DNA of 32,000 nt from Pseudoalteromonas tetraodonis (GTDB lineage: Bacteria; Pseudomonadota; Gammaproteobacteria; Enterobacterales; Alteromonadaceae): the NCBI RefSeq assembly GCF_002310835.1, contig NZ_CP011041.1:1980001-2012000 (forward strand), read 5' to 3'. A program made the translations under genes and the position numbers. Position 1 is the first letter of the stretch; each line of letters opens with the position of its first letter. Shown piece by piece: positions 6,196-31,813 of the stretch. Under the pieces are notes generated by a model. It worked only from the letters and a program-made list of their open reading frames with translations, did no database searches and was not told the origin of the DNA.

Positions 6196-6224
6196 ATTAT
6201 GGGGATTGAATAAAAAGATTCAAG
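6196..6224 (-). promoter_or_regulatory. Sigma-32 (RpoH) heat-shock promoter for grpE
   Basis: The minus strand reads CTTGAA (6224-6219), a 14-nt spacer, then CCCCATAAT (6204-6196). The consensus is CTTGAA-N13-15-CCCCATNT. The -35 hexamer overlaps the hrcA TGA stop codon. The -10 element ends 34 nt upstream of the grpE ATG. Confidence 0.65.
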
Positions 6225-8684: not shown

Positions 8685-9242
8685 ATGACTTATGTAGTAT
8701 TTCTTGCTTTATTATTGTTAATTACTTTACTTGGCAGTTACTTACTCATTGAAAGTAATCGTAAAAAGACTATTGAAGCAAAGAAAAAGCTGTTTAACGA
8801 GCGCGTTGCAAGTACTCAATCACGTTTAAAAATAAAACTTAACGAGTTACTTGATGCAAAAGTCATTAGTGCTAAACACCTTCCTCGAATTCAAGCCGTT
8901 GTCAGTAATTTTTTTGTAGTACAGCCACACACTGATGAAAATTTAAACAAGCTAGAGTCGCTATGCGATTTACTTATTAATATACTTAACGAAGAACTAA
9001 TAAAAACCTATAAAAATAATAACAGCCAAGCTTTTTCCGATACCACTCAATATTTTATAGCAGAGTTACCAGCTCAAGGTATTTTATATAATAAAAACTT
9101 TTATCAAGAAGTCCTTCCTACGCTAATTTTAAAGTTAAAAACTGAAGACATAGCGCAACCAGTTGATAGTATTGACCTTAACGATGAAAACCTCCCTATT
9201 GATGAAGAAAAAAAAACATTAATTGAGTCCAGCCTTGCTTAA
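8685..9242 (+). CDS. Hypothetical N-terminally membrane-anchored protein (185 aa), no recognisable family
   Basis: The ORF lies in a gap between nadK and recN. It has an N-terminal TM helix (VVFLALLLLITLLGSYLLI), then a K/E/L/N-rich probably helical region and an acidic tail. It has only a weak SD (aggaaa, about 10 nt upstream). I recognised no motif. Confidence 0.5.
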   Translation: MTYVVFLALLLLITLLGSYLLIESNRKKTIEAKKKLFNERVASTQSRLKIKLNELLDAKVISAKHLPRIQAVVSNFFVVQPHTDENLNKLESLCDLLINILNEELIKTYKNNNSQAFSDTTQYFIAELPAQGILYNKNFYQEVLPTLILKLKTEDIAQPVDSIDLNDENLPIDEEKKTLIESSLA

Positions 9243-11039: not shown

Positions 11040-11357
11040 ATGCAAACGACGGTCATTTATTTTGGCTTAGCAATTAACTGGCTGCTACTGATTGTCAGTA
11101 TACTTTTGGCTGTTTTTAGTAAGTTTAAACATACACAATTTAAGCAGAGCTTATATCGCTTTTTAAATGTAGCATTAATTGTACATATTGTTATTGCTGT
11201 TATGTTAGTTTTTAGCAGCACAGCTATTAGTGGCTTAATAACACTAAGTTGGTTAGTTATTGGCCTACAGCTTGTTTGTAACGTTATTTGCTATAAAAGT
11301 GTGAAACGCCGACAAGCCAGAGTGAAACCGAGCCTAGATCACTTCTCGATGGATTAA
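11040..11357 (+). CDS. Small hypothetical integral membrane protein (105 aa, about 3 TM)
   Basis: It has a good SD (gagga at 11026-11030, 9 nt before the ATG) and three hydrophobic segments. It is followed by a clean terminator. I recognised no family. Confidence 0.55.
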   Translation: MQTTVIYFGLAINWLLLIVSILLAVFSKFKHTQFKQSLYRFLNVALIVHIVIAVMLVFSSTAISGLITLSWLVIGLQLVCNVICYKSVKRRQARVKPSLDHFSMD

Positions 11358-16000: not shown

Positions 16001-17462
16001 CACCCATTGAGCCAGTGGCTTCTTGCCCATTTTCACCCATGACACGAATGACGCTGTCTAGCTCTTCGTTAGTATAGCCAAACATCTTTTGGTATTTGAC
16101 AAGGGTTTCATCATCAAATGAGCGATTGCCCGCATCTTGCTCGGTAAGTGCTTCAAAAGGCGTTAATCGTTTAACGTTTTCTTCTAACCACGACTTATAA
16201 GGGTGGCGTGATTTTAAATCTTGGTCAATTTCATCTGAATGCCAAATTTTACCCAATTTAGTATCAATAACGAGGAGTTCGCCCGGGCCAACACGTCCTT
16301 TTTCGACCACTTCGTCAGCGGTGTAATCCCATATACCCACTTCAGAGGCTAAAGTAATAAAGCCATCTTGAGTAATAATATAACGCGCTGGACGTAAACC
16401 ATTTCGGTCTAGGTTACAGGCTGCAAAACGCCCATCCGACATAACGATGCCTGCAGGGCCGTCCCACGGTTCCATATGCATAGAATTAAAATCATAGAAT
16501 GCACGTAAGTCGTCATCCATAGCACGGTTTTTTTGCCATGCTGGCGGCACTAGCATGCGCATCGCACGGAATAAATCCATACCACCAGCTAAAAACAGCT
16601 CTAGCATATTATCGAGGCTAGATGAGTCAGACCCTGTTTCATTAACAAACGGCGCTGCGCTTTGTAAATCAGGAATAAGCGGCGAAGCAAATTTATAAGA
16701 GCGTGCACGGGCCCACTGGCGGTTACCTTCAATAGTATTAATTTCACCATTGTGCGCTAAATAACGAAATGGTTGCGCTAAAGGCCAGCGAGGCTGTGTG
16801 TTTGTAGAGAAGCGTTGATGAAAAACACAAATAGCACTGGTCATGCGAATATCAGCAAGATCGAGATAAAAATTTGGCAAGTCAGCAGGCATCATTAAGC
16901 CTTTATAGATGGTGACTAGCCCAGATAAGCTCGCAATATAAAATGATTCATCATCCATCAAGCGCTTTTCTGCACGACGACGTGCAACATATAAACGTCG
17001 CTCTAAATCTTTAGAACGCCAACCTTCAGGCGCACTAATAAAAATTTGTTCAAACCCAGGCAATTGCTTTAGGGCTATAGGTCCTAGCATTGATGGATCG
17101 GTAGGGACAACACGCCAACCTAAAATATTAAGCGTTTCTTTTTCTAGTTCTTCGCTTAAAACATCTTTAGCTGCTTGTGCTAATACCGGATCAGCATTGA
17201 GGAAAATCATCCCAACGGCGTAATTTTTACCTAAATGCCAATTATTTTCAGCAGCAATAGCACGAAAGAAGCTGTCTGGTTTTTGAAGTAACAAGCCACA
17301 ACCATCACCCGTTTTACCATCAGCAGATATACCGCCGCGGTGCTGCATGCGATCTAAACCGGTGATCGCCGTACGGATGAGTCGGTGACTCGCTTGGTTA
17401 TTTACTTGGGCTATTAAGCCAAAGCCACAATTATCTTTTTCTAGTTTTGAGTCATATAACAT
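13005..17462 (-). CDS. gltB: Glutamate synthase (NADPH) large subunit
   Basis: It is collinear with E. coli GltB throughout. Shared elements include the MLYD..L..DNCGFG amidotransferase Cys, the FMN and 3Fe-4S regions and the C-terminal GXGXG domain ending AELRVQAQ. A strong SD (aaGGGGAGGGG, complement of 17466-17476) precedes the ATG at 17462, so the ORF-track GTG at 17483 is probably not used. Confidence 0.97.
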
Positions 17463-17563
17463 GGACCCCTCCCCTTGCTGCACTGTTAACGTGGATGAAC
17501 GGCTCGACGATTTGCTAACAGACGATCAAAATTAGCGTTATTCCTAACCTGAGTCAATATCTT

Positions 17564-17581
17564 TCTGAATACATATTCATT
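17564..17581. promoter_or_regulatory. ARG-box-like palindrome (candidate ArgR operator) upstream of gltB
   Basis: tcTGAATacatATTCAtt fits the ARG box core TGAAT-W4-ATTCA. A degenerate second copy (TGAATatatTTCA, 17586-17599) lies 20 bp away. The site is about 100-140 bp upstream of the gltB ATG. Confidence 0.35.
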
Positions 17582-17949
17582 ATATTGAATATATTTCAAC
17601 TTCATTAAAAATTATAAAATAATGCTAAATATTAACATTTGAGTAGATATTGGATCGAAAACTTTAATGACACCGGTGTTATTTTTAAGAACTTGTAAAT
17701 AAAACCTCCTCACAACAGGCAGTTTACGTAAACGTAAAGGAGGCTTAAAATGAATAACTATTCACTAGATATCATTCCATCATTTTTGCTTTATTCGTAA
17801 TACATCTAAACATGACATTTAATTACATCGACTTCTATTAGCACATAGTTTATTCAATGAATTTGCACGTTAGTCTTATGCTATGCATTAATTAACAACT
17901 TTCTTTGCTTTACGTTGAGGTAATCTCACCCCACAGCCAAATCAAAAAA

Positions 17950-17984
17950 GTGCCCGCAGCGGACACTTTTTATGTCCGCGGACA
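17950..17984. promoter_or_regulatory. Tandem GC-rich palindromes; candidate enhancer (UAS) for the sigma-54 activator encoded at 22814-24142
   Basis: The first palindrome is GTGcCCGCaGCGGaCAC (17950-17966, 17 bp, one mismatched pair). The second is the perfect 12-bp TGTCCGCGGACA (17973-17984). Both contain GCGGACAC, and their centres are about 20.5 bp apart. They are the only GC-rich islands in a very AT-rich spacer and lie about 55-105 bp upstream of the TGGCACG element. Confidence 0.45.
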
Positions 17985-18037
17985 CATAAAAAGAAAGTTT
18001 AAAAATAAAAAGTAATTAAATTCAAAAAGATAAAAAA

Positions 18038-18053
18038 TGGCACGCTATTCGAA
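18038..18053 (+). promoter_or_regulatory. Candidate sigma-54 (RpoN) promoter of the ABC-efflux operon
   Basis: TGGCACGctatTCGAa compares with the consensus TGGCACG-N4-TTGCW. The -24 element is perfect. The -12 element matches 3/5 and has GA instead of the conserved GC. The -12 element lies about 36 nt upstream of the micro-ORF ATG. Confidence 0.4.
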
Positions 18054-18088
18054 TATCCCATAACTATATAAATTTTGAGGGCATTTGA

Positions 18089-18172
18089 ATGTTTACTATT
18101 GGCTTATTTTTAATTTCACCAATTATTCTGTTTATTGCCTCGCTAATGATTACTGTGTTTGAAAAACACTAA
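18089..18172 (+). CDS. 27-codon hydrophobic micro-ORF (single predicted TM): MFTIGLFLISPIILFIASLMITVFEKH
   Basis: It is below the ORF-track size cut-off. GAGGG (18077-18081) lies 7 nt before the ATG. It ends 16 nt before the adaptor gene ATG and is the first reading frame downstream of the predicted sigma-54 promoter. Confidence 0.35.
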   Translation: MFTIGLFLISPIILFIASLMITVFEKH

Positions 18173-18188
18173 GCAAAGAGAACAAATA

Positions 18189-19445
18189 ATGATTAAAGAC
18201 ACTAGCGGGCAAGACACGCAAATCTCACGACCTATAAATTTTAAAAAAAACATATGGCTGTTTATATTTACTGTGGGCTTAGTTGCTCTATGTGTATATG
18301 CATTATTAAATACTGATCAAGAAGGTACTATCTCGGTTGATAGAGTAAGCCTACAAATAGCCACAGTGGTGCGCCAATCACTAATACGTGATGTTGCAGC
18401 CAGCGGTAAAATTGTAGCCGCCAGAGCACCAAAAGTTTACAGCCCTGAACGAGGCTTTGTTTCATTGAAGGTAAATGCTGGTGACTCAGTCAAACTGAAT
18501 GATGTAATAGCCATGGTTGAGAGCCCCGAGCTCACAAACGAATTAAAGCAGCAACAGTCTGTTTTAGCTCGTCTTGAGGGCGAGCTACAACGTAAACACC
18601 TTGAGGCACGCCGCCAATCATTAAGCTTAAATAAAGCGCTTGATCTAGCACAAGTAGAATTAAACGCTGCCGATAGAGAAAATCGCAGAGCGACTTTGTC
18701 AATGCAAAAAAATGTGATCAGTCAAATTGATCATGAAAAAGCCATTGATGAGCTTGCCCGTGCAAAACTTTCTTATAAACATGCAGAGCAAGAAGTTGAA
18801 TTGTCCAAAGATACACTTGCTTTTGAACTACAGGCCGCTAAACGAGATGTCACTCGTCAACAACTGATTGTCGATGATCTACTTCGCAAAGTTAATAACT
18901 TAACAATTAAAGCCACTGTGTCAGGGATTGTAGGTAACTTACTAGTTCAACAAAGAGAAGCGGTAACACAAAGCCAACCACTAATGACTTTAGTTGATTT
19001 GAGCAATTTTGAAGCAGAACTACAAGTCCCTGAAAGTTATGCAAATGACCTTGGTTTAGGTATGGACGTAGAGATAACAATGGGCGCTAGCAAAGTGATG
19101 GGTACCCTTTCTGCCATTTCACCAGAAGTCAATAATAGAGAAGTCACAACACGTGTACGTTTTAACAAAGACATGACGGGCATCAGACAAAACCAACGAT
19201 TAACCGCACGTATTTTATTAGAAAATCGTGACGATGTTTTACAGGTTAAGCGTGGGGCATTTTTACAACAAGGCGGCACACAGGTTTATAAAATTACCGG
19301 TGATACAGCTCAGCTCATTGATATTTCAATTGGTGCAACCAGCATTAATGCGGTTGAGTTAATTTCAGGGGTTCAAGCTGGCGATGAATTGATTATCTCA
19401 AGCTATAACAGTTTCAAACACACACACACGTTATTACTTCGCTAA
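18189..19445 (+). CDS. HlyD/MacA-family periplasmic adaptor (membrane fusion protein)
   Basis: It has an N-terminal TM anchor (IWLFIFTVGLVALCVYALL), then a biotinyl-lipoyl-like segment (VNAGDSVKLNDVIAMVESPEL). These are followed by a long coiled-coil hairpin and beta-barrel segments. I chose the start at ATG 18189 because the ORF-track TTG at 18159 overlaps the micro-ORF. Confidence 0.85.
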   Translation: MIKDTSGQDTQISRPINFKKNIWLFIFTVGLVALCVYALLNTDQEGTISVDRVSLQIATVVRQSLIRDVAASGKIVAARAPKVYSPERGFVSLKVNAGDSVKLNDVIAMVESPELTNELKQQQSVLARLEGELQRKHLEARRQSLSLNKALDLAQVELNAADRENRRATLSMQKNVISQIDHEKAIDELARAKLSYKHAEQEVELSKDTLAFELQAAKRDVTRQQLIVDDLLRKVNNLTIKATVSGIVGNLLVQQREAVTQSQPLMTLVDLSNFEAELQVPESYANDLGLGMDVEITMGASKVMGTLSAISPEVNNREVTTRVRFNKDMTGIRQNQRLTARILLENRDDVLQVKRGAFLQQGGTQVYKITGDTAQLIDISIGATSINAVELISGVQAGDELIISSYNSFKHTHTLLLR

Positions 19446-19480
19446 CAATCGCGTAGAACCAAATAATAAAAGGAAAAAGC

Positions 19481-20191
19481 ATGTTAAAGATGAATAATAT
19501 AAGTAAAGTATATCAAACTGAAATGGTGCAAACCCATGCATTACGTGACTTTAATCTGCACGTTGATGAAGGCGAATTTATTGCTGTAACAGGCCCTAGC
19601 GGGTCAGGAAAAACGACCTTTTTAAATATCGCTGGAATGTTAGAGCCCTTCTCCGCAGGTGAATACTTACTTGATGGAATTGATGTCGGTAAGTTAAACG
19701 ATAATCAACGTGCAGATTGTCGAAATCAAAAAATAGGCTTTATCTTCCAAGGGTTTAATTTAATACCTGACTTAAACTTATATGAAAATATTGAAGTACC
19801 GCTACGTTATAGGGGTATTAAAGCCGCAGAGCGTAAACGTCGCATTGAAAAATGCTTAGAACAAGTTGGCCTTGCCTCTCGGGCAAAACATTTGCCACAG
19901 CAACTCTCTGGCGGACAGCAACAACGAGTGGCCATAGCACGGGCGCTTGCTGGCGAGCCACGATTTTTATTAGCCGATGAACCTACCGGTAATCTCGACA
20001 GCCTTATGGCTCGTCAAGTAATGGAGCTGCTTGAACAAATCAATCGCGATGGCGCAACCATTGTCATGGTCACCCATGATGCAGAACTTGCTCGGCGTGC
20101 CCCTCGAAATATTCAAGTTGTAGACGGTCAACTTGCTGATTTCACCTTGTACCAAGGTGCACAAAACCTTAAAAATGTTGCTGGAGCCTAA
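19481..20191 (+). CDS. ABC transporter ATP-binding protein, MacB/LolD-type (stand-alone NBD)
   Basis: It has Walker A (GPSGSGKTT), a Q-loop region ([19 protein letters not shown]), the signature [15 protein letters not shown], Walker B ([11 protein letters not shown]) and an H-loop (VTHD). An AGGA lies 6 nt upstream of the ATG. Confidence 0.92.
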
Positions 20192-20194
20192 GCC

Positions 20195-21508
20195 ATGCTT
20201 CTACATTACCTCGATTTAAGTTGGCGCAGCTTCAAGCGCACACCGTTAGTAAGCTTTTTAATGGTACTGGCGATTGCCATTGGTATTGGCATCACTATGA
20301 CGAGTTTAAGCGTTTATCACATGATGTCAGCGGATCCCATTGCGCATAAAAGTAGCCAGCTCTATGCTGTGCAGTTGCAAGTAATGGATGATGGCCACAC
20401 TTGGTGGACGTCTGATAACCTCCCGCTACAACTAACTTATCAAGATGCTGCAAACCTATATAAATCAGAGATAGGTGGCCAGCGTTTAAAAATGGTGCGC
20501 AGTGGATTCTCTGTTTACATAGACTCTGACACAGTAAAACCTTTTAGCCAAAGTGCGAGACTAACAACCCCAGAATTTTTTAATATGTTTGATCTTGAGT
20601 TTCTCTATGGTGAAAAATGGTCTCTGCAGCAAGAAGAAAACGCGACCCCCGTTGTTGTGATCAGTGAAGAGTTAAATAATAAGCTTTTTGCTGGCGAAAA
20701 TTCAGTGGGTAAAATTATTTACCTTGATGATGCGAGTTATGAAGTGGTTGGGGTTACTAGAAACTGGCCATTAACCATCAAATACTACGATTTAAATAAT
20801 GGTTCATTTAATGACCCTGAACAACTTTTTATGCCATTTAGTCTTCTTGAAGCAAAACAGCTTGGTAATTGGGGGAATACCAATGGTTGGAAACATGAGG
20901 ATGTTAGAAGCTTTAGTGCCAAGTTACAGTCAGAAATGGTGTGGATTCAATTCTGGGTTGAATTAACTAACGAACAACAAAAAAATGATTATGAAAATTA
21001 TTTATTAGCCTACATGCAAGAGCAACAAAAGCTTGGTCGTTTTAATCGCAAAGAGTTAGCTTACAGTATTCGAGATGTTAACCAGTGGATGGCCTATAAC
21101 AACGTGGTCAGTGAAGATAACAAAATTTTAGTCGCACTTAGTTTTATGTTTTTGGCTGTATGTTTGGCGAATATTCTCGGCTTATTACTTGCAAAATTTT
21201 TACGTCGAGCTCCAGAAGTCGGTGTACGCCGTGCACTTGGAGCCAGTAAGCGACAGATTTTTATGCAACATATTATCGAAGTCGCCATGCTAGGACTATT
21301 AGGTGGGCTACTTGGTATTGTCCTTGCCCAGTTTGGCTTATTGGGTGTTCGCCAAAGCTATAGCTACTACGAAAGCTTAGCGACCATGGATTTAACCATG
21401 TTATTGAGCGCCCCACTCATTGCAATTAGCACCTGCATAATAGCTGGGCTTTACCCTGCTTGGCTGGTATGTAAAACCAATCCTGCAATTTACCTAAAAA
21501 GCCAATAA
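20195..21508 (+). CDS. FtsX/MacB-type ABC permease with large periplasmic domain (paralog 1)
   Basis: The 437-aa ORF has TM1, a periplasmic domain of about 270 aa (MacB_PCD-like), and then three C-terminal TM segments with the GVRRALGASKRQIF amphipathic motif typical of FtsX-family permeases. Its start lies 3 nt after the ATPase stop. Confidence 0.85.
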   Translation: MLLHYLDLSWRSFKRTPLVSFLMVLAIAIGIGITMTSLSVYHMMSADPIAHKSSQLYAVQLQVMDDGHTWWTSDNLPLQLTYQDAANLYKSEIGGQRLKMVRSGFSVYIDSDTVKPFSQSARLTTPEFFNMFDLEFLYGEKWSLQQEENATPVVVISEELNNKLFAGENSVGKIIYLDDASYEVVGVTRNWPLTIKYYDLNNGSFNDPEQLFMPFSLLEAKQLGNWGNTNGWKHEDVRSFSAKLQSEMVWIQFWVELTNEQQKNDYENYLLAYMQEQQKLGRFNRKELAYSIRDVNQWMAYNNVVSEDNKILVALSFMFLAVCLANILGLLLAKFLRRAPEVGVRRALGASKRQIFMQHIIEVAMLGLLGGLLGIVLAQFGLLGVRQSYSYYESLATMDLTMLLSAPLIAISTCIIAGLYPAWLVCKTNPAIYLKSQ

Positions 21509-21519
21509 GGACGAACACT

Positions 21520-22728
21520 ATGATGTTAGAAATTAAACCTATTTTCCATGCACTGTGTCGATCTAAAGTTGGTGCGCTGTTGTTACTTATCCAAATAGCT
21601 ATTACTACTGCTATTGTCAGTAACGCAGCGTTTATTATTCAAGATAGAATGACTTATCTTAATCAGGATACAGGATACCCCGAAGATGAAATACTTGCTT
21701 TTCATGTCATGCACTTTGGCAAAGATGTCAAAAGCCACCAACAATTTGAACTTGATGAAGCGATGTTAAGAGCTTTACCCGCAGTGAAAGACGCCGCCTA
21801 TATAAACAACATCCCCTTATCGGGAAGTGGTAGCTCTTCTGACTTCAGTATAAATTCAGCCCCTGAGCCTGGGCTTTCTGCAAGAACTGCTTACTTTTTT
21901 ACAGATGATCATGCAATTAACACGCTTGGGGTTGAACTTATTGCTGGACGCAATTTTAGAGAAGACGAAGTTGTTGTAACTAACGATAATGATCAGCGAG
22001 CCAATGTTACCATTGTGACACAGGCATTATTAAATGAGCTATTTCCTGATGAAGATGGATTAGGAAAAACAATATTCCTTGGTGATATTCCAATGAAAGT
22101 CATTGGTGTAATTAAGCATGCAAAAGGCCCATGGCTCAAAGACAGCCGCCCAAATAATGTCGCATTAATTCCTTATATAAATCCTAATATTTCGGGGAAT
22201 TTTTTAGTTCGCACAGCAGCCAATGAGCGGGCAAATATTGCTAAACGAATTGAAGACGAGATGCTAGAAAATTACAACAAACGTGTAATTATCCGAGTTC
22301 GGGGCCTTGACCAAGATAAAGCCCAATACATGGCTGAAGACACATTGATGATGCGTATGTTAATTGTGCTCATAACCATACTGGTATTGGTAACCGCACT
22401 GGGCATTTTTGGTTTGACGCTATTTAATATAAACAAACGTACCAAGCAAATTGGAACCCGTCGTGCTTTAGGCGCTCGTAAATCTGCAATTGTTAATTAT
22501 TTTTTAGTTGAAAATGCGCTGATTTGCATTGCTGGCTTATTTTTAGGTGCTATTTCAGCACTTTTACTCGGTCAGTTATTAATGCAACATTTTTCAATAG
22601 CGGCATTACCATCAAGTTATATTGCTGTCACGGCAATCATGGTGTTCACAATGAGTCTTTTGGCTGTATTTGGCCCAGCTAAACGCGCGGCAAATATTTC
22701 GCCGAGTATCGCAACCCGAACCATATAG
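21520..22728 (+). CDS. FtsX/MacB-type ABC permease with large periplasmic domain (paralog 2)
   Basis: The 402-aa ORF has the same architecture as paralog 1. It carries the GTRRALGARKSAIV motif, and an AAGGA lies 8 nt upstream of the ATG. Confidence 0.85.
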   Translation: MMLEIKPIFHALCRSKVGALLLLIQIAITTAIVSNAAFIIQDRMTYLNQDTGYPEDEILAFHVMHFGKDVKSHQQFELDEAMLRALPAVKDAAYINNIPLSGSGSSSDFSINSAPEPGLSARTAYFFTDDHAINTLGVELIAGRNFREDEVVVTNDNDQRANVTIVTQALLNELFPDEDGLGKTIFLGDIPMKVIGVIKHAKGPWLKDSRPNNVALIPYINPNISGNFLVRTAANERANIAKRIEDEMLENYNKRVIIRVRGLDQDKAQYMAEDTLMMRMLIVLITILVLVTALGIFGLTLFNINKRTKQIGTRRALGARKSAIVNYFLVENALICIAGLFLGAISALLLGQLLMQHFSIAALPSSYIAVTAIMVFTMSLLAVFGPAKRAANISPSIATRTI

Positions 22729-22743
22729 CACAGCTCCCAACCT

Positions 22744-22776
22744 ATGCTACACTGGCTAAACGCGGTGTAGCATTTT
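22744..22776 (+). terminator. Hairpin between the permease and regulator genes (possible partial terminator, attenuator or processing site)
   Basis: A perfect 9-bp stem pairs atgctacac (22744-22752) with gtgtagcat (22765-22773) around a 12-nt loop. The following U tract is short (ttt). Confidence 0.35.
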
Positions 22777-22813
22777 CAATATTTAAATAATAATAAACAG
22801 CGATTAAATTAAC

Positions 22814-24142
22814 ATGGAAAAAATACTTATCGTTGATGATAATCCTGCAATTTTAGATGCTCTGTCATTATTGCTAGAGATTCACGACTATAAAGTGGTT
22901 ACTGCAAATAGCCCATTTGAAGCTATTCAAATTGTGCAATACCAGCGTATTGCACTTGTACTTCAAGATATGAACTTTAGTAACGACACAACTTCAGGAG
23001 AAGAGGGAAAGTTACTCTTTTATCAACTTAGAGAGCTAAATCCCCATCTGCCCATTATTCTGATCACTGCATGGACTGAGCTTGAAACAGCCGTTGAACT
23101 TGTCAAAGCCGGTGCGGCTGATTATTTACCAAAACCATGGGATGATGCCAAGCTTCTTACCTGTGTTAATAACCTAATTGAACTAGGAAAGACAAAAAAA
23201 CAAAATCAAACCTTATTGCGCCACCAGCAAGAGCGTGAGGCATCTATAGAAAATGCTAATTTAGTAGGTTTAATTTATCGCAGTACGGCCATGGAGCAAT
23301 TAGTTAAAATGGCATTACAAGTCGCCAAATCTGATGTCTCAGTATTAATAACAGGCCCAAATGGCAGTGGTAAAGAGCGCATAGCACAAATTATTCAAGC
23401 AAACTCACCTCGCCAAAATGCTGCGTTTATTACGGTCAATGCAGGTGCCCTTCCCCATCAACTAATAGAAGCAGAATTATTTGGTGCAGAAGCAGGTGCT
23501 TTTACAGGGATCACAAAACAAAGGATTGGTCGATTTGAAGCAGCTGACGGTGGCACATTATTTTTAGATGAAATAGGTAATCTCCCTTTATCAGGGCAAA
23601 TGAAGCTCCTACGGATTTTACAAACGGGAGAATTCGAGCGCTTAGGTTCAACCCAGACCCGAAAAGTTAATGTCCGTGTAATATCAGCGACCAATGAAAA
23701 CCTAACAGATGCAATCAGCAAAGGACAGTTTAGAGAAGACTTATACTACCGCTTAAATGTAATTGAACTTAACTTACCAAGTCTTAACCAACGACCGGAT
23801 GACATACTTCCTCTTATTCGTCATTTTTTAGAAGAACGTGAGCTGGATTTACAATGCGAAAACCTACTTTTAGCCCATTCATGGCCCGGTAATGTTCGTG
23901 AACTTGAAAATGCATGTAAACGAGTCAGTGTGCTTAAACCCAGCGGTGAGATAAGCATCGATGACTTTGGTTTAACTCCTATTACGCCTCAAACACTGAC
24001 TCAAAAAATAGAGCCTAACAAACAACAAATTGAGGATGCCATGCGTTTACATAAAGGGGTGATTGCCAAAGTAGCACGTGAGTTTGGCCTTAGCAGACAA
24101 GCACTCTACCGTCGCCTTGATAAGTTTGAGATTGCCTACTAA
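22814..24142 (+). CDS. Sigma-54-dependent response regulator (NtrC family: REC + AAA+ + Fis-type HTH)
   Basis: The receiver domain shows ILIVDDN...VLQDMNF...KPW. The AAA+ domain has Walker A (GPNGSGKE), the GAFTG sigma-54 contact loop, Walker B (LFLDEIG) and WPGNVRELEN. The C-terminal HTH is IAKVAREFGLSRQALYRRLDKF. Confidence 0.92.
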   Translation: MEKILIVDDNPAILDALSLLLEIHDYKVVTANSPFEAIQIVQYQRIALVLQDMNFSNDTTSGEEGKLLFYQLRELNPHLPIILITAWTELETAVELVKAGAADYLPKPWDDAKLLTCVNNLIELGKTKKQNQTLLRHQQEREASIENANLVGLIYRSTAMEQLVKMALQVAKSDVSVLITGPNGSGKERIAQIIQANSPRQNAAFITVNAGALPHQLIEAELFGAEAGAFTGITKQRIGRFEAADGGTLFLDEIGNLPLSGQMKLLRILQTGEFERLGSTQTRKVNVRVISATNENLTDAISKGQFREDLYYRLNVIELNLPSLNQRPDDILPLIRHFLEERELDLQCENLLLAHSWPGNVRELENACKRVSVLKPSGEISIDDFGLTPITPQTLTQKIEPNKQQIEDAMRLHKGVIAKVAREFGLSRQALYRRLDKFEIAY

Positions 24143-25446
24143 TGGTTAAATCAAGATACCGCTTTTCTTTAACGTCTAAAGTGATTTTAGTATGTGTATT
24201 TTCCTCTGCGATCCCTGTTTTTATCTGTTGCTGGCTGCTGGATGTTGACGGTATAAAAACAGCACTAAGTGTTATTTTTACAGCCACTCTGAGTAGCTTT
24301 TTAGCTCATCGACTCAGTGGTAAACTGGTTCAAGGTATTACTTCATTAGAAACTGGCTTATTAAATTTTAAGGATGGGGAACTATCAACTTTACTGGCCT
24401 ATAACCATAATGATGAATTAGGTCATTTGTGCCAGCTTTATAACCAAACTGCAAAGCAATTAAGACAAGAAAAACAATGGGTTTACCAACGAGAGTTAAT
24501 GCTTGATAAGGTATTACAAAACTCCCCTCAAGCTGTATTATTAGTTAATGATAATGATTTTATTGTTTATAGTAACCACAGTGCGAGAGATTTTTTTAAT
24601 GCAAGTACAGCCCTTGAAGGCGAAAAAATCTCACCATTATTGTCTAAAGCCCCACAGCAAATAATTAATGCCGTTAATAAAGGCGTAGATGGTTTATTTA
24701 TTCTTGATAAAACAGAACAAGAACCGCAAACATGGCATCTTTCAATGGGTCGCTTATTGCTTAACAACCAACACCATAGGTTGTTTGTTTTTAAACAATT
24801 GACCCGCGAATTGAGCCGCCAAGAAGTTGAAGTTTGGAAAAAGGTTATTAGGATCATTAGCCATGAACTCAATAACTCACTAGGGCCTATGTCATCCATG
24901 TTACATAGTGCACAACTGTTAACGCAAAAAGTGGATGAACCTCGTTTAAAGCGCGTTTTCACTACCATTGAAGAGCGAATAAAGCATTTAAACGAGTTCG
25001 TTCAAGGCTATGGTAGGTTTGCTAAACTTCCACCACCTAAAATAACAACGGTTGACTGGCATTCATTACTCGATCAATTACAAAGCCAATGGCAATTTAA
25101 TTTCGACCTTCAAAAAGACATCACTACAAAAGCCGATCAAACCCAAATAGAACAATTGCTCATTAACCTGTTGAAAAACGCACATGAATCAGAGTCGCTA
25201 GCGGAGCATATCAGCTTAAAAGTAACACAAGATAGCCTCGGCACTCATATTAATGTGAGCGATCAAGGAAAAGGTATGAGTGAAACAGTTATGGCCAGTG
25301 CGCTTATCCCTTTTTATTCTACCAAGGTGGCAGGAAGTGGATTAGGTTTGGCACTGTGTCGAGAAATTGTTGAAGCCCATCATGGGCAAATTAGCCTACA
25401 CAATCGGGACGTCGGCGGGATCAGTGTTTTTGTAAGTTTACCTTGA
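24142..25446 (+). CDS. Sensor histidine kinase (2 TM with minimal periplasmic loop, HAMP, PAS-like, HisKA, HATPase_c)
   Basis: Its ATG overlaps the regulator's TAA (taATGg), which suggests translational coupling. Hydrophobic segments at residues about 14-33 and 41-55 are separated by only DVDGIKT. It has an H-box (ISHELNNSLGPM), an N-box (LLINLLKNAHES), G1 (DQGKGM) and G2 (GSGLGLALC). Confidence 0.85.
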   Translation: MVKSRYRFSLTSKVILVCVFSSAIPVFICCWLLDVDGIKTALSVIFTATLSSFLAHRLSGKLVQGITSLETGLLNFKDGELSTLLAYNHNDELGHLCQLYNQTAKQLRQEKQWVYQRELMLDKVLQNSPQAVLLVNDNDFIVYSNHSARDFFNASTALEGEKISPLLSKAPQQIINAVNKGVDGLFILDKTEQEPQTWHLSMGRLLLNNQHHRLFVFKQLTRELSRQEVEVWKKVIRIISHELNNSLGPMSSMLHSAQLLTQKVDEPRLKRVFTTIEERIKHLNEFVQGYGRFAKLPPPKITTVDWHSLLDQLQSQWQFNFDLQKDITTKADQTQIEQLLINLLKNAHESESLAEHISLKVTQDSLGTHINVSDQGKGMSETVMASALIPFYSTKVAGSGLGLALCREIVEAHHGQISLHNRDVGGISVFVSLP

Positions 25447-25590
25447 GAGTTGTTTAACTTTAAGGCTGAAAACTCATCCAATTTAGAAATGATACAATCG
25501 CGTTCTGAAGTTTATGACCTAGTGAGCTAAGTAAAAACCGCGAAAAGCTGCCTACTCATTCGGTACTGTCATCGTATAAGCAACTATGAG
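25444..25590. repeat. Imperfect-palindromic intergenic repeat element, second terminus type, copy 4 of 4
   Basis: The left terminus tgagagttgtttaa (25444-25457) is identical to 8431-8444. The core 25507-25540 matches copy 1 at 30/34. The right end is ...aagcaactatgag (25590). The kinase TGA stop codon (25444-25446) is the first three bases of the repeat. Confidence 0.7.
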
Positions 25591-25608
25591 TAAATACTTT
25601 ATAGACAT

Positions 25609-27042: not shown

Positions 27043-28965
27043 ATGACTATTTTTGATCACTACCAAGCACGTTATGAATCAACACAAGAAGAAGAGTACA
27101 GTGTTGCTGAGTTTCTAGAAATTTGTAAAACCGATAAGTCTGCTTATGCCAGTGCTCCTGAAAGATTACTGATGGCCATTGGCGAGCCTAAAATGGTAGA
27201 TACCGCTACCGATACTCGTTTAAGTCGCTTATTTTCGAACCGTGTTGTTGCACGTTACCCTGCATTTGCCGATTTTTATGGTATGGAAGACGCCATTGAG
27301 CAAATTGTTTCTTATCTAAAACACGCCGCGCAAGGATTAGAAGAGTGTAAACAAGTGCTTTACTTGCTTGGTCCGGTGGGTGGCGGTAAGTCATCGATTG
27401 CTGAAAAGCTAAAGTATTTAATGCAACGAGTGCCTATTTATGCAATTAAGGGCTCCCCGGTTAATGACCATCCGCTGTCATTATTTGATCCCGTTGAAGA
27501 TGCCAGCCTACTCGAAAAAGAATATGGAATTAAGTCTCGTTACCTCAAAACGGTAATGTCGCCATGGGCCGCAAAACGTTTACAAGAATTTAATGGTGAT
27601 ATTAGTCAATTTAGAGTGGTTAAACGCTTCCCATCAATTTTAAATCAAGTTGCGATTGCTAAAACAGAGCCCGGAGATGAAAACAATCAAGATATTTCTG
27701 CTCTTGTCGGTAAGGTCGATATTCGCCAACTTGAACACTTTGCACAAAATGATCCTGATGCTTATGCCTATTCAGGCGCATTATGTTTAGCCAACCAAGG
27801 CTTAATGGAATTTGTGGAAATGTTTAAAGCCCCCATAAAAGTGTTACATCCGCTTTTAACAGCTACCCAGGAAGGTAACTATAACGGCACAGAAGGCATA
27901 AGCGCCCTGCCATTTAACGGCATGATACTCGCCCACTCCAACGAGTCAGAATGGCAAACCTTTAAAAACAATAAAAACAACGAAGCCTTTTTAGACCGTG
28001 TTTATATTGTTAAGGTCCCTTATTGCTTACGAGTGACCGAAGAAATTAAAATTTACGATAAGCTTATTGAACACAGTGAGCTTTACAACGCCCCCTGTGC
28101 GCCAGGTACACTTAAAATTTTAGCTCAATTTACCACTCTTTCGCGCTTAAAAGAACCGGAAAACTCAAGCATTTACTCTAAGATGCGAGTTTACGATGGT
28201 GAAACCCTTAAAGACACCGATCCAAAAGCGAAGTCGTATCAAGAGTATCGTGATTATGCTGGTGTTGATGAGGGCATGACCGGTCTTTCAACCCGTTTTG
28301 CGTTTAAGATTTTATCGCGAGTATTCAACTTTGACACCACCGAAGTGGCCGCCAACCCTGTGCATTTGTTTTATGTGCTTGAGCAACAAATTGAGCGTGA
28401 ACAATTTAGTGCCGAGGTTGAAGAACGTTATTTAAGCTTTTTAAAAGGCTATTTAATTCCACAATATGTTGAGTTTATAGGTAAAGAGCTACAAACCGCG
28501 TACTTAGAGTCATATTCAGAATATGGCCAAAATATTTTTGACCGCTACGTTATTTATGCTGACTTTTGGATTCAAGATCAAGAATACCGCGACCCTGATA
28601 CAGGGCAATTATTTGACCGTGATGCACTCAACGCTGAGCTTGAAAAAATAGAAAAGCCTGCAGGTATTTCAAACCCTAAAGATTTTAGAAATGAAATTGT
28701 TAACTTTGTACTGCGTGCTCGCGCTCATAACAATGGCAAAAATCCGCTGTGGACAAGTTATGAAAAACTACGCACGGTTATTGAGAAAAAAATGTTCTCA
28801 AACACGGAAGACTTACTCCCTGTTATTTCATTTAATGCAAAAACATCAGCTGAAGATCAGCAAAAGCATGAGGACTTTGTTAATCGTATGGTTGAAAAAG
28901 GCTACACGCAAAAACAAGTGCGCTTGCTATCTGAGTGGTATTTACGGGTTAGAAAATCGCAATAA
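27043..28965 (+). CDS. yeaG: PrkA-family serine protein kinase (YeaG)
   Basis: The 640-aa ORF has a Walker A-like GPVGGGKSS. Its length and sequence (MTIFDHYQARYE...EFLE..., ...LSEWYLRVRK) are typical of the PrkA/YeaG AAA-kinase family. It is followed by yeaH and spoVR homologs. Confidence 0.92.
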   Translation: MTIFDHYQARYESTQEEEYSVAEFLEICKTDKSAYASAPERLLMAIGEPKMVDTATDTRLSRLFSNRVVARYPAFADFYGMEDAIEQIVSYLKHAAQGLEECKQVLYLLGPVGGGKSSIAEKLKYLMQRVPIYAIKGSPVNDHPLSLFDPVEDASLLEKEYGIKSRYLKTVMSPWAAKRLQEFNGDISQFRVVKRFPSILNQVAIAKTEPGDENNQDISALVGKVDIRQLEHFAQNDPDAYAYSGALCLANQGLMEFVEMFKAPIKVLHPLLTATQEGNYNGTEGISALPFNGMILAHSNESEWQTFKNNKNNEAFLDRVYIVKVPYCLRVTEEIKIYDKLIEHSELYNAPCAPGTLKILAQFTTLSRLKEPENSSIYSKMRVYDGETLKDTDPKAKSYQEYRDYAGVDEGMTGLSTRFAFKILSRVFNFDTTEVAANPVHLFYVLEQQIEREQFSAEVEERYLSFLKGYLIPQYVEFIGKELQTAYLESYSEYGQNIFDRYVIYADFWIQDQEYRDPDTGQLFDRDALNAELEKIEKPAGISNPKDFRNEIVNFVLRARAHNNGKNPLWTSYEKLRTVIEKKMFSNTEDLLPVISFNAKTSAEDQQKHEDFVNRMVEKGYTQKQVRLLSEWYLRVRKSQ

Positions 28966-28996
28966 CCTTCATAATTGCAGTTTTTAGGAGGTCATT

Positions 28997-30280
28997 ATGG
29001 CGCATTTTATCGACAGGCGTTTAAATGGCAAAAACAAAAGCACAGTTAACCGCCAGCGTTTTATTAGACGTTATAAAAAGCAGATCAAAGAAGCGGTGTC
29101 TGATGCGATCAATAAACGCAGTGTCACTGATTCAAGCTCTGGAGAGAGTATCTCTATTCCGCAGCGTGATATTAGCGAACCTACTTTTCATCAAGGTAGA
29201 GGCGGTAATAGAGAGCAAATACACCCTGGGAACGATCAGTTCTCTACTGGCGACAAAATAGAACGCCCTAAAGGAGGCAAAGGCGGTGGCGCAGGCGAAG
29301 GTGAAGCAAGTGACTCTGGCGAAGGCCAAGATGAATTTGTTTTTTCTATCTCTAAAGATGAATACCTTGATTTGTTATTTGAGGATTTAGAACTCCCTAA
29401 TTTGCAAGAAAATCAGCTTGATAAGCTAGTGCAAATGAAAACCCATCGCGCTGGGTTTTGCAGTGATGGTATGCCCAGTAATATTGATGTAGTGCGCTCA
29501 TTACAAGGCTCTCTAGCTCGTCGTATTGCAATGACCGCAGGTAAAAAACGCCGCCTTAGCGAGCTTGAGGGGCAACTAGCACTGCTGCTTGAACAACCAC
29601 ACTGTGATAAAGCCGCTGTGGCCTTATTACAAAAAGAAATCGACACACTCAAACAGCAAATAAAAACCGTGCCCTTTATCGATAATTACGACTTACGTTT
29701 TCGTAACTACGACAAGCAACCACACCCAACCAGTAAAGCGGTGATGTTTTGTATTATGGATGTGTCAGGTTCAATGGATCAAGCAACAAAAGACATGGCA
29801 AAACGCTTTTACATTTTGCTTTATCAGTTTTTAACTCGCAGCTACAAAGACATCGACGTTGTGTATATTCGCCATCATACCCAAGCCAAAGAAGTTGATG
29901 AGCAAGAGTTTTTTTATTCACAAGAAACAGGCGGTACCATTGTTTCAAGTGCACTAAAACTGATGAATGAAATAATAGCTGAGCGCTATAATGCTGATGA
30001 ATGGAATATATACGCAGCACAAGCTTCTGATGGTGATAATTGGGCCGATGACACGCCCCAATGTGGACACATTTTACGTAATAAAATACTTAAAGCTGTT
30101 CGCTATTTTGCCTATATAGAAATTACCACACGTGCTCATCAAAGTTTATGGCGCGAGTATCAAAACATTAGTCAAACGAACAGTAATTTTGCCATCCAGC
30201 ATATCCAAGGTGTTGAAGATATTTACCCTATATTTAGGGAGCTATTTAAAAAAGGTCGTCAACAGCAAGGGGCTGCATAG
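28997..30280 (+). CDS. yeaH: YeaH/YhbH-family protein (DUF444, vWA-like)
   Basis: The N-terminus is [27 protein letters not shown]. There is a Gly-rich acidic linker, and the C-terminal [11 protein letters not shown] motif is a vWA MIDAS-like DxSxS. Its position directly after prkA also supports the call. Confidence 0.9.
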
Positions 30281-30298
30281 CCAAAGCGAGGTAGCATT

Positions 30299-31813
30299 AT
30301 GAAAGATAATCGAATAAGTGATGGGCCCGATTGGACCTTTGAACTATTGCAACAATACCAAGACGAAATAGCGCGTGTGGCTGAGCACTATAAGCTAGAC
30401 ACCTACCCTAACCAAATTGAAGTGATCACCGCAGAACAAATGATGGATGCCTACTCAAGTGTAGGCATGCCCATTGGCTACACTCACTGGTCGTATGGTA
30501 AAAAATTTATTCAAACGGAGCAAAATTATAAACGCGGCCAAATGGGACTTGCGTATGAAATTGTGATTAATTCGAACCCCTGTATTGCTTACCTAATGGA
30601 AGAAAACACCCTTCCGATGCAGGCACTGGTTATGGCACATGCTTGCTATGGGCATAACTCATTTTTTAAAGGTAATTATTTATTTAAAACTTGGACTGAT
30701 GCAGGCTCAATTATTGATTATTTATTGTTTGCTAAAAACTATATTAGCCGCTGTGAAGAAAAATACGGTATTTCCGAAGTAGAAAGCATACTCGACTCAT
30801 GTCATGCATTAATGAGTTACGGTGTTGATAGGTACAAACGTCCACAACGAATTTCGTTATTTGAAGAGCAAAAGCGTCAGCAAGAACGGGCTGAGTATTT
30901 GCAATCACAAGTTAACGAATTATGGCGTACCATTCCTTCTCAACAGCAAGAGTCAAAAAAACACGAACGCCACTTCCCGCAAGAGCCACAGGAAAATATT
31001 CTGTACTTTATTGAAAAAAATGCTCCTTTACTCGAGTCATGGCAGCGAGAAATCGTCAGGATAGTGCGAAAAATATCACAATACTTTTACCCGCAAAAAC
31101 AAACCCAAGTAATGAATGAAGGTTGGGCCACTTTTTGGCACTACACTATTTTGAACCATTTATATGATGAGGGAAAACTAACCGACTCATTTATGTTGGA
31201 GTTTTTACAAAGCCATACTAATGTTGTGTACCAACCTCCATACAATAGCGATTATTACTCAGGTATTAACCCCTATGCACTGGGCTTTAATATGATGGTT
31301 GATATACGTCGTATTTGTGAAAACCCAACAGAAGAAGATAAACGCTGGTTCCCTGAGCATGCGGGCAGTGACTGGCTCGAGACACTGCACTTTGCAATGC
31401 AAAATTTCAAAGATGAGAGTTTTATTAGCCAATTTTTATCCCCTAAGCTGATTCGGGATTTTAAATTATTCACCATAGTCGACCATGCTAGTAACCCACA
31501 TTTAGAAATAGGCGCTATTCACGACGATAATGGCTACAAAGCGGTTAGAGAAGCACTTTCTGCACAATATAACCTTAGTAATCATGAGCCTAACATACAA
31601 GTTTACGATGTTGACTTACGCGGCGACCGCTCTTTAACCCTACGATATGTACCTCATAATGCCGTTCCACTGGCTAACTCCCATGGGGAAGTATTAAAAC
31701 ACCTTTACAGACTATGGGGCTTTAAGGTAAAACTGGAACAGGAGTCAAATTCTGGTGAGATTTCAACCATTGGTCAATGTCCAATTGATGATTCACGCCA
31801 TACAACAGAGTAA
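30299..31813 (+). CDS. ycgB: SpoVR-family protein (YcgB)
   Basis: The 504-aa ORF has motifs (YPNQIEVITAEQM, HACYGHNSFFK, NEGWATFWH) characteristic of the SpoVR/YcgB family. It is the third gene of the prkA-yeaH-spoVR module. Confidence 0.9.
   Translation: MKDNRISDGPDWTFELLQQYQDEIARVAEHYKLDTYPNQIEVITAEQMMDAYSSVGMPIGYTHWSYGKKFIQTEQNYKRGQMGLAYEIVINSNPCIAYLMEENTLPMQALVMAHACYGHNSFFKGNYLFKTWTDAGSIIDYLLFAKNYISRCEEKYGISEVESILDSCHALMSYGVDRYKRPQRISLFEEQKRQQERAEYLQSQVNELWRTIPSQQQESKKHERHFPQEPQENILYFIEKNAPLLESWQREIVRIVRKISQYFYPQKQTQVMNEGWATFWHYTILNHLYDEGKLTDSFMLEFLQSHTNVVYQPPYNSDYYSGINPYALGFNMMVDIRRICENPTEEDKRWFPEHAGSDWLETLHFAMQNFKDESFISQFLSPKLIRDFKLFTIVDHASNPHLEIGAIHDDNGYKAVREALSAQYNLSNHEPNIQVYDVDLRGDRSLTLRYVPHNAVPLANSHGEVLKHLYRLWGFKVKLEQESNSGEISTIGQCPIDDSRHTTE

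Follow-up and report, generated by a model that had tools for sequence, protein, structure and literature searches.

Regulation is much less understood for ATP-binding cassette (ABC)-type tripartite pumps than for those of the resistance-nodulation-division (RND) type. MacB is a homodimer, in which the ATPase is fused to the permease, and is under the control of PhoPQ (PMC5985334). Another arrangement has been described for VarACDEF of Vibrio cholerae (VC1563, VC1565-VC1568), which is composed of a fusion protein, the MacB-like permeases VarD and VarE with four transmembrane (TM) helices each, and a separate dimeric ATPase, VarF; the system was shown experimentally to export macrolides and dyes and requires TolC or its own channel VarC (PMC5595328). 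Here we describe a cassette of seven consecutive genes on the + strand of a 32-kb stretch of DNA (hereafter the window) from Pseudoalteromonas tetraodonis, at positions 18089-25446, which carries the genes of a pump of this kind next to those of its own two-component system. With a probability of roughly 55%, the cassette can be read as a detoxification pump that is inducible, depends on TolC and is positively autoregulated through sigma-54.

The subunit set of the cassette is the same as that of VarACDEF, i.e., an adaptor, two permeases with large periplasmic domains and a separate ATPase. VarACDEF differs, however, by having its own outer-membrane factor (OMF), VarC, a divergent LysR regulator, VarR, and linkage to a metallo-beta-lactamase gene; it has neither a sigma-54 activator nor a kinase, and a micro-protein is not mentioned in the passages considered (PMC5595328). 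MacAB-TolC of E. coli, A. baumannii and A. actinomycetemcomitans shares with the cassette the type VII fold, a membrane-anchored hairpin adaptor and, as predicted for the cassette, an OMF encoded elsewhere; both permeases find their best match, in structure as in sequence, in MacB. In contrast to MacAB, the cassette has a separate ATPase, two permeases with only 23% identity to each other (BLASTP, over the C-terminal two thirds), an insertion in permease 1 and a dedicated sigma-54 system. The scores against MacB proper (NF007826) were 48-210 bits, far below the cutoff of 966, and the ATPase is unfused. In the initial annotation of this DNA, the architecture was set apart from canonical MacAB. 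This contrast agrees with the published properties of MacAB (PMC5985334), but the arrangement is not unprecedented in view of VarACDEF and of the NCBIfam placement of permeases 1 and 2 as the N- and C-terminal halves of fused ADOP- and DarB-type permeases.

As for transcriptional control, a computational survey of Gammaproteobacteria published in 2025 found that sigma-54 promoters are enriched in the regions upstream of COG0577 FtsX permeases, which its authors presented as the first evidence for a link between sigma-54 and FtsX, with neither mechanism nor experiments (PMC12316311); so far the link has been proposed only from such genome-wide promoter statistics. Dedicated control of a pump of this type by an enhancer-binding protein (EBP) had been placed outside any well-characterised paradigm in the initial annotation. 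This was overstated, since the connection between sigma-54 and FtsX permeases had already been reported (PMC12316311); the open-access literature yielded no functional study of the cassette or of an activator-controlled MacB-type pump. What is new is that a pump of this type is firmly coupled to an activator-kinase pair of its own, together with the defined enhancer, a -12 element of unusual sequence and the micro-protein.

Organization and conservation of the cassette

The seven genes encode, in this order, a micro-protein, an adaptor (membrane fusion protein), a stand-alone ABC ATPase, permease 1, permease 2, an NtrC-family response regulator and a histidine kinase. The intergenic gaps are 16, 35, 3, 11 and 85 nt in gene order, and the last base of the activator gene is also the first of the kinase gene. 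The open reading frame (ORF) coordinates thus agree with the tight same-strand block of seven genes recognized beforehand, and the domains then named for the six large ORFs were all found in Pfam (HlyD_D23, ABC_tran, MacB_PCD, FtsX, Sigma54_activat and HATPase_c; HisKA below threshold). The start then given for the block, 17950, needs revision, because it is non-coding and corresponds to the first of two conserved palindromes, the putative activator sites described below. The cassette proteins are identical to ATD03441, ATD03443 and ATD03445 of P. tetraodonis strain GFC, for which all public names are generic.

For identification of related loci, one genome per species was scanned, giving 80 loci, and the gene order was analysed by tblastn with the window proteins. 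The six-gene order adaptor-ATPase-permease 1-permease 2-activator-kinase is kept at about 80 loci wherever the contig is long enough, in Pseudoalteromonas, Alteromonas, Glaciecola, Paraglaciecola, Aliiglaciecola, Planctobacterium, Psychrosphaera and several uncultured lineages. Recurrence in essentially all of these loci is far beyond chance. Permease 2 is located behind permease 1 at every locus whose contig extends that far, and the concern raised in advance, that the two permeases might not be co-conserved, is not borne out. The six large genes are syntenic across genera while the flanking genes vary: in P. tetraodonis, gltBD (minus strand) is located on one side, and grx, sodB and prkA-yeaH-spoVR on the other, but the neighbours gltBD, grx and sodB are restricted to one Pseudoalteromonas sub-clade. 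After clustering of all flanking ORFs, no neighbour was found to be conserved beyond sub-clades, and no OMF, substrate pathway or regulon member was revealed among them. Since no flanking gene is conserved beyond sub-clades, the cassette itself is the unit of inheritance. No OMF gene was detected within the 32-kb window, as noted in the initial annotation, nor in the conserved flanks of the relatives, and an Rfam search over 17400-25600 gave zero matches.

The level of conservation differs between the subunits. The identity to the window proteins (tblastn) is 83-97% for the ATPase, 60-91% for permease 1, 47-90% for permease 2, 51-77% for the adaptor, 62-81% for the activator and 46-71% for the kinase. 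The ATPase is far more constrained across genera than its operon partners (83-97% against 47-90%), a constraint that may come from contacts with two different permeases.

All six genes are also present in a relative with 49% identity, found in an unrelated assembly. The four pump genes, but not the regulators, are present in relatives at 36% and 32% identity, one of which has a different gene order, and fused permeases of 830-870 aa were among the relatives found in the permease 1 search. The occurrence of the pump without the regulators in distant relatives indicates that the four-gene pump is an old and widespread module, of which the version coupled to a sigma-54 two-component system appears to represent a sub-family. 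In a plasmid collection, relatives were detected only on Pseudoalteromonas chromids of 0.86-1.3 Mb, called non-mobilisable (hits H1-H4), and not on mobilisable plasmids; the locus of P. phenolica (L034) is on chromosome 2. These locations indicate that the cassette resides on different replicons in different species.

Predicted enhancer and sigma-54 promoter

Two palindromes, in the forms TGTCCG-N3-CGGACA and TGTCCGCGGACA, are located within the 700-nt gap upstream of the cassette. The first, upstream activator site 1 (UAS1; 17950-17966), is GTGCCCGC-A-GCGGACAC, written out GTGCCCGCAGCGGACAC, and is predicted to be the site of the cassette's own activator. The second, UAS2 (17973-17985), is the perfect palindrome TGTCCGCGGACA(C), i.e., TGTCCGCGGACAC. 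An AT-rich spacer (17986-18037) lies between this enhancer and a sigma-54-type promoter, TGGCACGCTATTCGAA (18038-18053, + strand; TGGCAC-N5-TCGAA), from which transcription is predicted to start near 18064. Relative to this start, the centres of UAS1 and UAS2 are at about -106 and -86, respectively; being 20.5 bp apart, or about two helical turns, they are on the same DNA face.

The family consensus is GTGTCCGC-N-GCGGACAC, then TTTTTC, then TGTCCGCGGACAC, and the same order is found in other genera. For a systematic comparison, palindromes with at most one mismatch were scored between -450 and -150 of 76 loci, with 1.5 Mb of locus sequence as background. The UAS1 form TGTCCG-N3-CGGACA is present in 64 of the 76 loci and once elsewhere in the 1.5 Mb; the UAS2 form occupies the same place in 58 loci, with three matches elsewhere. 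Taken as TGTCCG-N0/N3-CGGACA, the element is present in 68 loci, with both forms together in 54, against four matches elsewhere in the 1.5 Mb. The density of half-sites is 12 per kb within the -450 to -150 stretch and 0.19 per kb outside, i.e., a 62-fold difference. Within the 32-kb window, no further palindrome site was detected with up to two mismatches. We know of no NtrC, AtoC or GlrR site that matches the half-site TGTCCG/CGGACA with 0- and 3-nt spacers, although no search aimed at such a match was made. The possibility that the palindromes constitute an intrinsic terminator was considered and rejected: no + strand gene ends upstream, the sequence is conserved beyond pairing, and the half-site occurs in two spacings.

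The distance from the UAS to the promoter is 42-63 nt (median 54), and the mean A+T content of the spacer is 0.76 across the loci. Of 77 spacers, 54 contain the sequence WATCAANNNNTTR, which resembles the binding site of integration host factor (IHF), with no more than one mismatch, as against 17.5% of shuffled spacers, a four-fold difference; the site is mostly 15-19 nt upstream of TGGCA. In each of the 77 upstream regions, the best match was the element T-TGGCA[C/T][G/A]-N4-T[C/G]G[T/A/C]A-T, for which the median distance to the adaptor ATG is 152 nt. Among 69 distinct promoter sites, TGGCA, T, G and A are essentially invariant and the spacing is fixed. In the window, the -24 element is perfect; in the -12 element, T and G are retained and the C is replaced by A (GA). 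The -12 dinucleotide over the 69 distinct sites is GT in 31, GA in 18 and GC in 16.

Tandem palindromes, a spacer, a -24/-12 element and a gene for an NtrC-type protein together give what appears to be the textbook geometry of an enhancer-dependent promoter. The cassette resembles NtrBC-glnAp2, ZraSR, AtoSC and GlrKR in the receiver-AAA+-HTH layout of the regulator, in tandem palindromic sites about 80-110 bp upstream and in a predicted IHF-type bend and -24/-12-type promoter; it differs from these classical systems in the -12 element, mostly GT or GA instead of GC, and in the L1 loop of the activator, mostly GAYTG. The dedicated control by sigma-54 and a two-component system, as proposed in the initial annotation, thus gains sequence-level support from a UAS, IHF-like site and -24/-12 module conserved in about 76 genomes, and we consider the regulatory part of the model, i.e., autoregulation by the activator through sigma-54, to be rather likely.

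Activator, kinase and internal hairpin

The activator (22814-24142, + strand; 442 aa) carries the Pfam domains Response_reg, Sigma54_activat (2.9e-67), AAA_lid_14 and HTH_8. The receiver aspartate is at position 52, the Walker A motif GPNGSGKE at 181 and the L1 loop GAFTGI at 228. The scores stayed below all NCBIfam equivalog cutoffs (NtrC 356/559, AtoC 327/714, ZraR 291/760; GlrR and others likewise), indicating that the activator is not an orthologue of a named regulator. As against GAFTGI in the window, the loop is GAYTG in 62 of 74 orthologues, and GAYTGA occurs naturally in HrpS, where it is functional (PMC3105312). No co-variation was detected within the family between the F/Y variant of the loop and the -12 dinucleotide.

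The histidine kinase (24142-25446, + strand; 434 aa) was identified by HATPase_c, with matches below the Pfam threshold for HisKA, HAMP (58-109) and PAS (120-155). From the N-terminus, it consists of two TM segments joined by a loop of about 7 residues, then HAMP, cytoplasmic PAS, DHp and CA; the hydropathy is clear for the first TM helix (14-32) and moderate for residues 40-58. Both hydropathy and Pfam indicate that a periplasmic sensor domain is missing. With only cytoplasmic HAMP and PAS domains, a kinase of this type would respond to a cue on the membrane or cytoplasm side. The kinase gene adjoins the pump in all loci and in the relative with 49% identity, but is absent at 36% identity or less. 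In BceAB-BceRS of Firmicutes, a transporter of the FtsX family has co-evolved with a two-component system, of which the kinase is without an extracellular sensor domain (PMC5985334). The cassette kinase, also without a sensor domain, likewise always travels with its pump. BceAB-BceRS has, however, a single BceB with 10 TM helices, an OmpR-type sigma-70 activator, BceR, and a kinase, BceS, without PAS, whereas the cassette has permeases with four TM helices and an NtrC-type regulator. By this comparison, the cassette would be at most an analogue, and not a member, of the Bce-type modules.

A hairpin with a T-rich tail (22744-22780, + strand) is located inside the 85-nt gap behind permease 2, as already noticed in the initial annotation: ATGCTACACTG...CGGTGTAGCAT forms an 11-bp stem at 22744-22773, followed by TTTC. 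The gap between permease 2 and the activator ranges from 22 to 197 nt (median 75), and a stable hairpin with differing stem sequences is found right behind the permease 2 stop in many loci; those with short gaps and no hairpin are L042, L049, L059 and L075. A simple terminator scan did not call the hairpin at 22744-22780. It is probably a partial terminator or an mRNA-stabilising 3' structure that holds the expression of the regulators below that of the pump. The sequence GCTACAC...GTGTAGC is kept beyond pairing in several Pseudoalteromonas species (the window and loci L007, L015, L019, L021 and L036), which could mean a sequence-specific element rather than a plain terminator.

Pump proteins

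For the adaptor gene (18189-19445, + strand; 418 aa), the ORF lister gives a TTG start at 18159, but the ATG at 18189 is likelier, as it matches the orthologue lengths of 417-420 aa. Pfam identified HlyD_D23, HlyD_3, HlyD_2 and also Biotin_lipoyl; in NCBIfam the score for RND_mfp was 93.9 bits (cutoff 94.9), and the matches to DarC and MacA were weak. The AlphaFold2 (AF2) model includes a TM helix at 18-40 and two helices of about 60 residues each, at 113-173 and 179-236, with pLDDT 70-82. The adaptor as modelled is membrane-anchored, and its predicted alpha-hairpin is of the kind that adaptors use to reach an outer-membrane channel.

The ATPase (19481-20191, + strand; 236 aa) matches Pfam ABC_tran (5.7e-32) and carries Walker A GPSGSGKT at 38, the signature LSGGQQQR at 142, Walker B LLADEPT at 163 and the H-loop VTHD at 197. 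Its best NCBIfam match is DarD with 268 bits (cutoff 375), followed by FtsE, LolD and the N-terminal region of MacB.

Permease 1 (20195-21508, + strand; 437 aa; MacB_PCD and FtsX) and permease 2 (21520-22728, + strand; 402 aa; FtsX and MacB_PCD) both show hydropathy consistent with four TM helices, the periplasmic MacB_PCD domain being located between TM1 and TM2. The periplasmic domain of permease 1 is about 270 aa long, and this permease contains an extra insertion of about 60 residues (about 190-250), absent from permease 2. In the AF2 model, permease 1 adopts the MacB fold; the Foldseek match that scored best with this model is A. baumannii MacB (5gko, TMq 0.66), and the top matches are MacB, Spr0695, LolE and YbbP. 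By sequence, the closest solved structures are MacB, S. pneumoniae Spr0695 and LolC, the match being limited to the TM region. The layout of the permeases and the ATPase with its four motifs are those of a type VII (MacB/FtsX-fold) ABC transporter. The domains of each gene thus agree with the architecture recognized in the initial annotation, i.e., two permeases, a separate ATPase and an adaptor, and permease 2 is the presumed heterodimer partner of permease 1.

Two families with a fused permease resemble parts of the cassette. Against ADOP (TIGR03434), a fused two-unit permease, permease 1 matches the N-terminal half with 157 bits and permease 2 the C-terminal half with 192 bits, the scores staying below cutoff; permease 2 also matches MacB (68 bits) and the C-terminal half of DarB (53 bits). 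DarBCD provides, through DarD, the best family match of the ATPase, and between the adaptor and DarC the alignment runs from end to end. The cassette differs from both ADOP and DarBCD in the split of the permease into two genes and in regulation, and every score was below the Dar family cutoffs (DarD 268 against 375, DarC 59 against 450, DarB 53 against 700).

The resemblance to DarBCD raises the possibility of a dedicated exporter for a self-made product, such as a lipopeptide, glycolipid, siderophore or small peptide, as in DarBCD, PvdRT-OpmQ or DevBCA-HgdD, with the two-component system timing the export. The match of the ATPase to DarD, together with the weak matches of the adaptor to DarC and of permease 2 to DarB, points in this direction, and the order-wide conservation suits a physiological substrate. 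Neither a biosynthetic gene nor any other gene is consistently adjacent, however, and the neighbours vary by clade; a precursor peptide of the darobactin type or a radical-SAM gene was found neither in the window nor in the flanks of the relatives. The product exporters known to us are located within their biosynthetic clusters. With all Dar scores below the family cutoffs, we regard export of a self-made product as unlikely. A detoxification role for the cassette is suggested instead by the absence of biosynthetic neighbours and the presence of its own two-component system, predicted to be autoregulated, a combination typical of detoxification modules.

LolCDE, in which two paralogous permeases of the FtsX type pair as a heterodimer and the ATPase dimer is separate, also resembles the architecture predicted for the cassette, but has no adaptor and works with LolA. 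A stress-induced type VII extractor for envelope maintenance, removing lipids, mislocalised lipoproteins or hydrophobic debris as LolCDE or YbbAP-TesA, with the adaptor as periplasmic conduit, would fit this resemblance and the appearance of LolCDE and YbbAP among the fold matches. It would also fit the high conservation of the ATPase, the retention of the cassette across the order and the reported frequent concern of sigma-54 regulons with the cell exterior (PMC4551910). Neither LolCDE nor YbbAP includes an HlyD-type adaptor, however, and the long alpha-hairpin of the cassette adaptor is a hallmark of OMF docking. The LolC/LolE scores were 20.7 (lolCE), 25 (lolE_release) and 28 bits (PRK11146) against cutoffs of 362, 540 and 439, respectively. 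The cassette is thus not a Lol system, and a role in envelope maintenance is considered improbable.

The micro-ORF

The first gene of the operon is a micro-ORF (18089-18172, + strand), which starts with ATG, is preceded by a GAGGG Shine-Dalgarno sequence 7 nt upstream, and encodes the 27-aa peptide MFTIGLFLISPIILFIASLMITVFEKH with a single TM helix. It is unannotated in NCBI records, and only a JGI gene call includes it. In 73 of 78 loci, an ATG-started ORF of 26-38 codons with a Shine-Dalgarno sequence is located behind the promoter and ends close to the start of the adaptor gene, within a range from -25 to +7 nt relative to its ATG. On average, two thirds of the positions differ between the peptides, but these can be aligned free of gaps over the hydrophobic core, with an invariant Pro and, exactly 14 positions later, an acidic residue (Glu; Asp in two loci). 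The C-terminal tail is mostly basic, suggesting an N-out, C-in orientation. From these features, the micro-ORF is a real gene, with a single-helix membrane protein as its product. Two other frames in the region, starting with GTG (17950-18015) and TTG (17905-18015), were considered as the micro-ORF and rejected, because they consist of the conserved palindromes and the non-conserved AT-rich spacer.

Very short single-helix inner-membrane proteins that are co-expressed with, and act on, a pump or a kinase include AcrZ for AcrB and MgrB for PhoQ. The micro-protein has no sequence similarity to AcrZ or MgrB, and the signature Pro-x13-Glu is specific to its own family. The micro-ORF is missing in four otherwise intact cassettes (two loci of P. 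rubra, P. luteoviolacea IPB1 and a Psychrosphaera metagenome-assembled genome), and the relative with 49% identity has no upstream micro-ORF. The micro-protein therefore appears to be accessory rather than essential, most likely as an accessory transmembrane subunit of the pump or as a link between pump and kinase. In the relative with 49% identity, an unrelated hydrophobic ORF of 60 codons is located within a 222-nt gap between adaptor and ATPase (L087, 7058-7240; also L088, 1926-2108).

The micro-protein might instead be cargo or signal, i.e., a hydrophobic peptide extracted by the pump and sensed by the kinase in an autoinducing loop. Its gene is the first of the operon and is translationally coupled to the adaptor gene, the kinase is without a periplasmic domain, and the micro-protein and the TM region of the kinase are the fastest-evolving parts, as is the case for specificity-determining pairs. 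The partial rank correlations of distance matrices between the micro-protein and TM segments of the kinase, the adaptor or the permeases are weak, however, with 0.22 for the kinase and a maximum of 0.26, for permease 1. Furthermore, there is neither a leader or cleavage motif nor a modifying enzyme, four otherwise intact cassettes are without the peptide, and an invariant Pro and a conserved acidic residue within the helix better fit a structural membrane partner. Taken together, a role of the peptide as cargo or signal is highly improbable.

A further, speculative arrangement, to which we give little weight, is that the micro-protein, the sensor-less kinase and the heterodimeric pump form one membrane complex, in which the kinase would read the activity of the pump or the occupancy of the micro-protein and not a free ligand. 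Such a complex would be the Gram-negative counterpart, with sigma-54 output, of the 'need-based' flux sensing of Bce-type modules, or of PilS sensing PilA in the membrane. If present, it would have no described precedent among tripartite pumps of the MacB type.

Proposed mode of action and its evaluation

In the proposed model of an inducible detoxification pump, the membrane-anchored kinase would respond to a cue on the membrane or cytoplasm side, most likely perturbation by the pump substrate, and phosphorylate the NtrC-type activator on Asp52. The activator would then bind the tandem palindromes at 17950-17985 and, with DNA bent at the AT-rich IHF-type spacer, use ATP to open the complex of the RpoN (sigma-54) holoenzyme at TGGCAC-N5-TCGAA (18038-18053). 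The resulting transcript would carry the micro-protein, the adaptor, the ATPase and both permeases, while the hairpin behind permease 2 may pass only part of the transcription to the activator and kinase genes, leading to positive feedback. By homology, the pump core would be of type VII (MacB fold), with two copies of the ATPase under a heterodimer of permease 1 and permease 2, and the adaptor with its long hairpin would cap this core and dock to a TolC-like channel whose gene lies elsewhere. The pump would take up a hydrophobic or amphipathic compound, either in the periplasm or from the inner membrane's outer leaflet, and expel it through ATP-driven mechanotransmission; the antimicrobial peptides, glycolipids or lipopeptides suggested as substrates in the initial annotation are conjectural.

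Several observations weigh against this model. The canonical C of the -12 element is missing in the window and in 53 of the 69 distinct sites (present in 16/69). When TGGCAC-N5-TTGCW was searched with at most two mismatches in the window alone, 24 matches were obtained against 22.8 expected, i.e., at the level of chance; the promoter match in the window is thus uninformative alone, and the support comes from conservation across genomes. The window's own copy of the IHF-like site is poor, with two mismatches. As to the pump, the AF2 models were built from shallow alignments: the overall pLDDT is 56.9 for the adaptor, of which only the anchor and the hairpin are usable, and 65.6 for permease 1, in which residues 192-250 of the insertion are unmodelled. 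The N-terminal 60 residues of the kinase are the least conserved among its orthologues (identity about 0.2), while HAMP, PAS and DHp are conserved, and a TM region so poorly conserved does not favour a precise intramembrane contact. Finally, ATPase identity of 83-97% and retention across the order look more like housekeeping than an accessory resistance pump.

The promoter findings bear on the alternative that the upstream module is not a working sigma-54 promoter for the operon, the pump being expressed from a sigma-70 promoter and the activator and kinase controlling other genes or only themselves. Such an alternative would be in line with the GC mostly missing at -12, with the window site having two mismatches and not being significant alone, and with the 85-nt hairpin gap that divides the pump genes from the regulator genes. 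A few well-studied IHF-dependent sigma-54 promoters likewise have poor -12 elements. Against it, the element TGGCA-N6-T.G.A, the palindromes and their spacing are conserved right upstream of the first pump gene, and matches to the palindromes outside that stretch number only four in the 1.5 Mb of flanking sequence, with none in the rest of the window. A sigma-70 scan of the upstream region gave no better match there, and the regulators travel with the pump in every genome. The chance of a non-functional module is accordingly judged to be quite small.

The cassette offers a compact experimental system across the order, with a defined putative activator site, a promoter, a kinase, a two-permease pump and a micro-protein. 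The assembly of a MacB-type heterodimer with its adaptor, the cue of a sensor-less kinase and the contribution of a 27-residue protein to a pump can all be tested through it. The hosts, Pseudoalteromonas, Alteromonas and Glaciecola, are abundant marine copiotrophs, and the substrate could bear on the tolerance of algal or competitor compounds.

Other features of the window

Three ORFs on the + strand, at 2494-3288, 8685-9242 and 11040-11357 (264, 185 and 105 aa, respectively), gave no Pfam match at E <= 1e-5. An HrcA-like repressor gene (6220-7185, - strand) is located directly upstream of grpE (5550-6161, - strand) and is divergent from nadK and recN; for Gammaproteobacteria, HrcA, with its control through CIRCE, is outside the heat-shock paradigm of E. 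coli. Downstream of sodB, the set of prkA, yeaH (DUF444) and spoVR is located at 27043-31813 (+ strand), forming a conserved stress-associated triad of poorly understood function.

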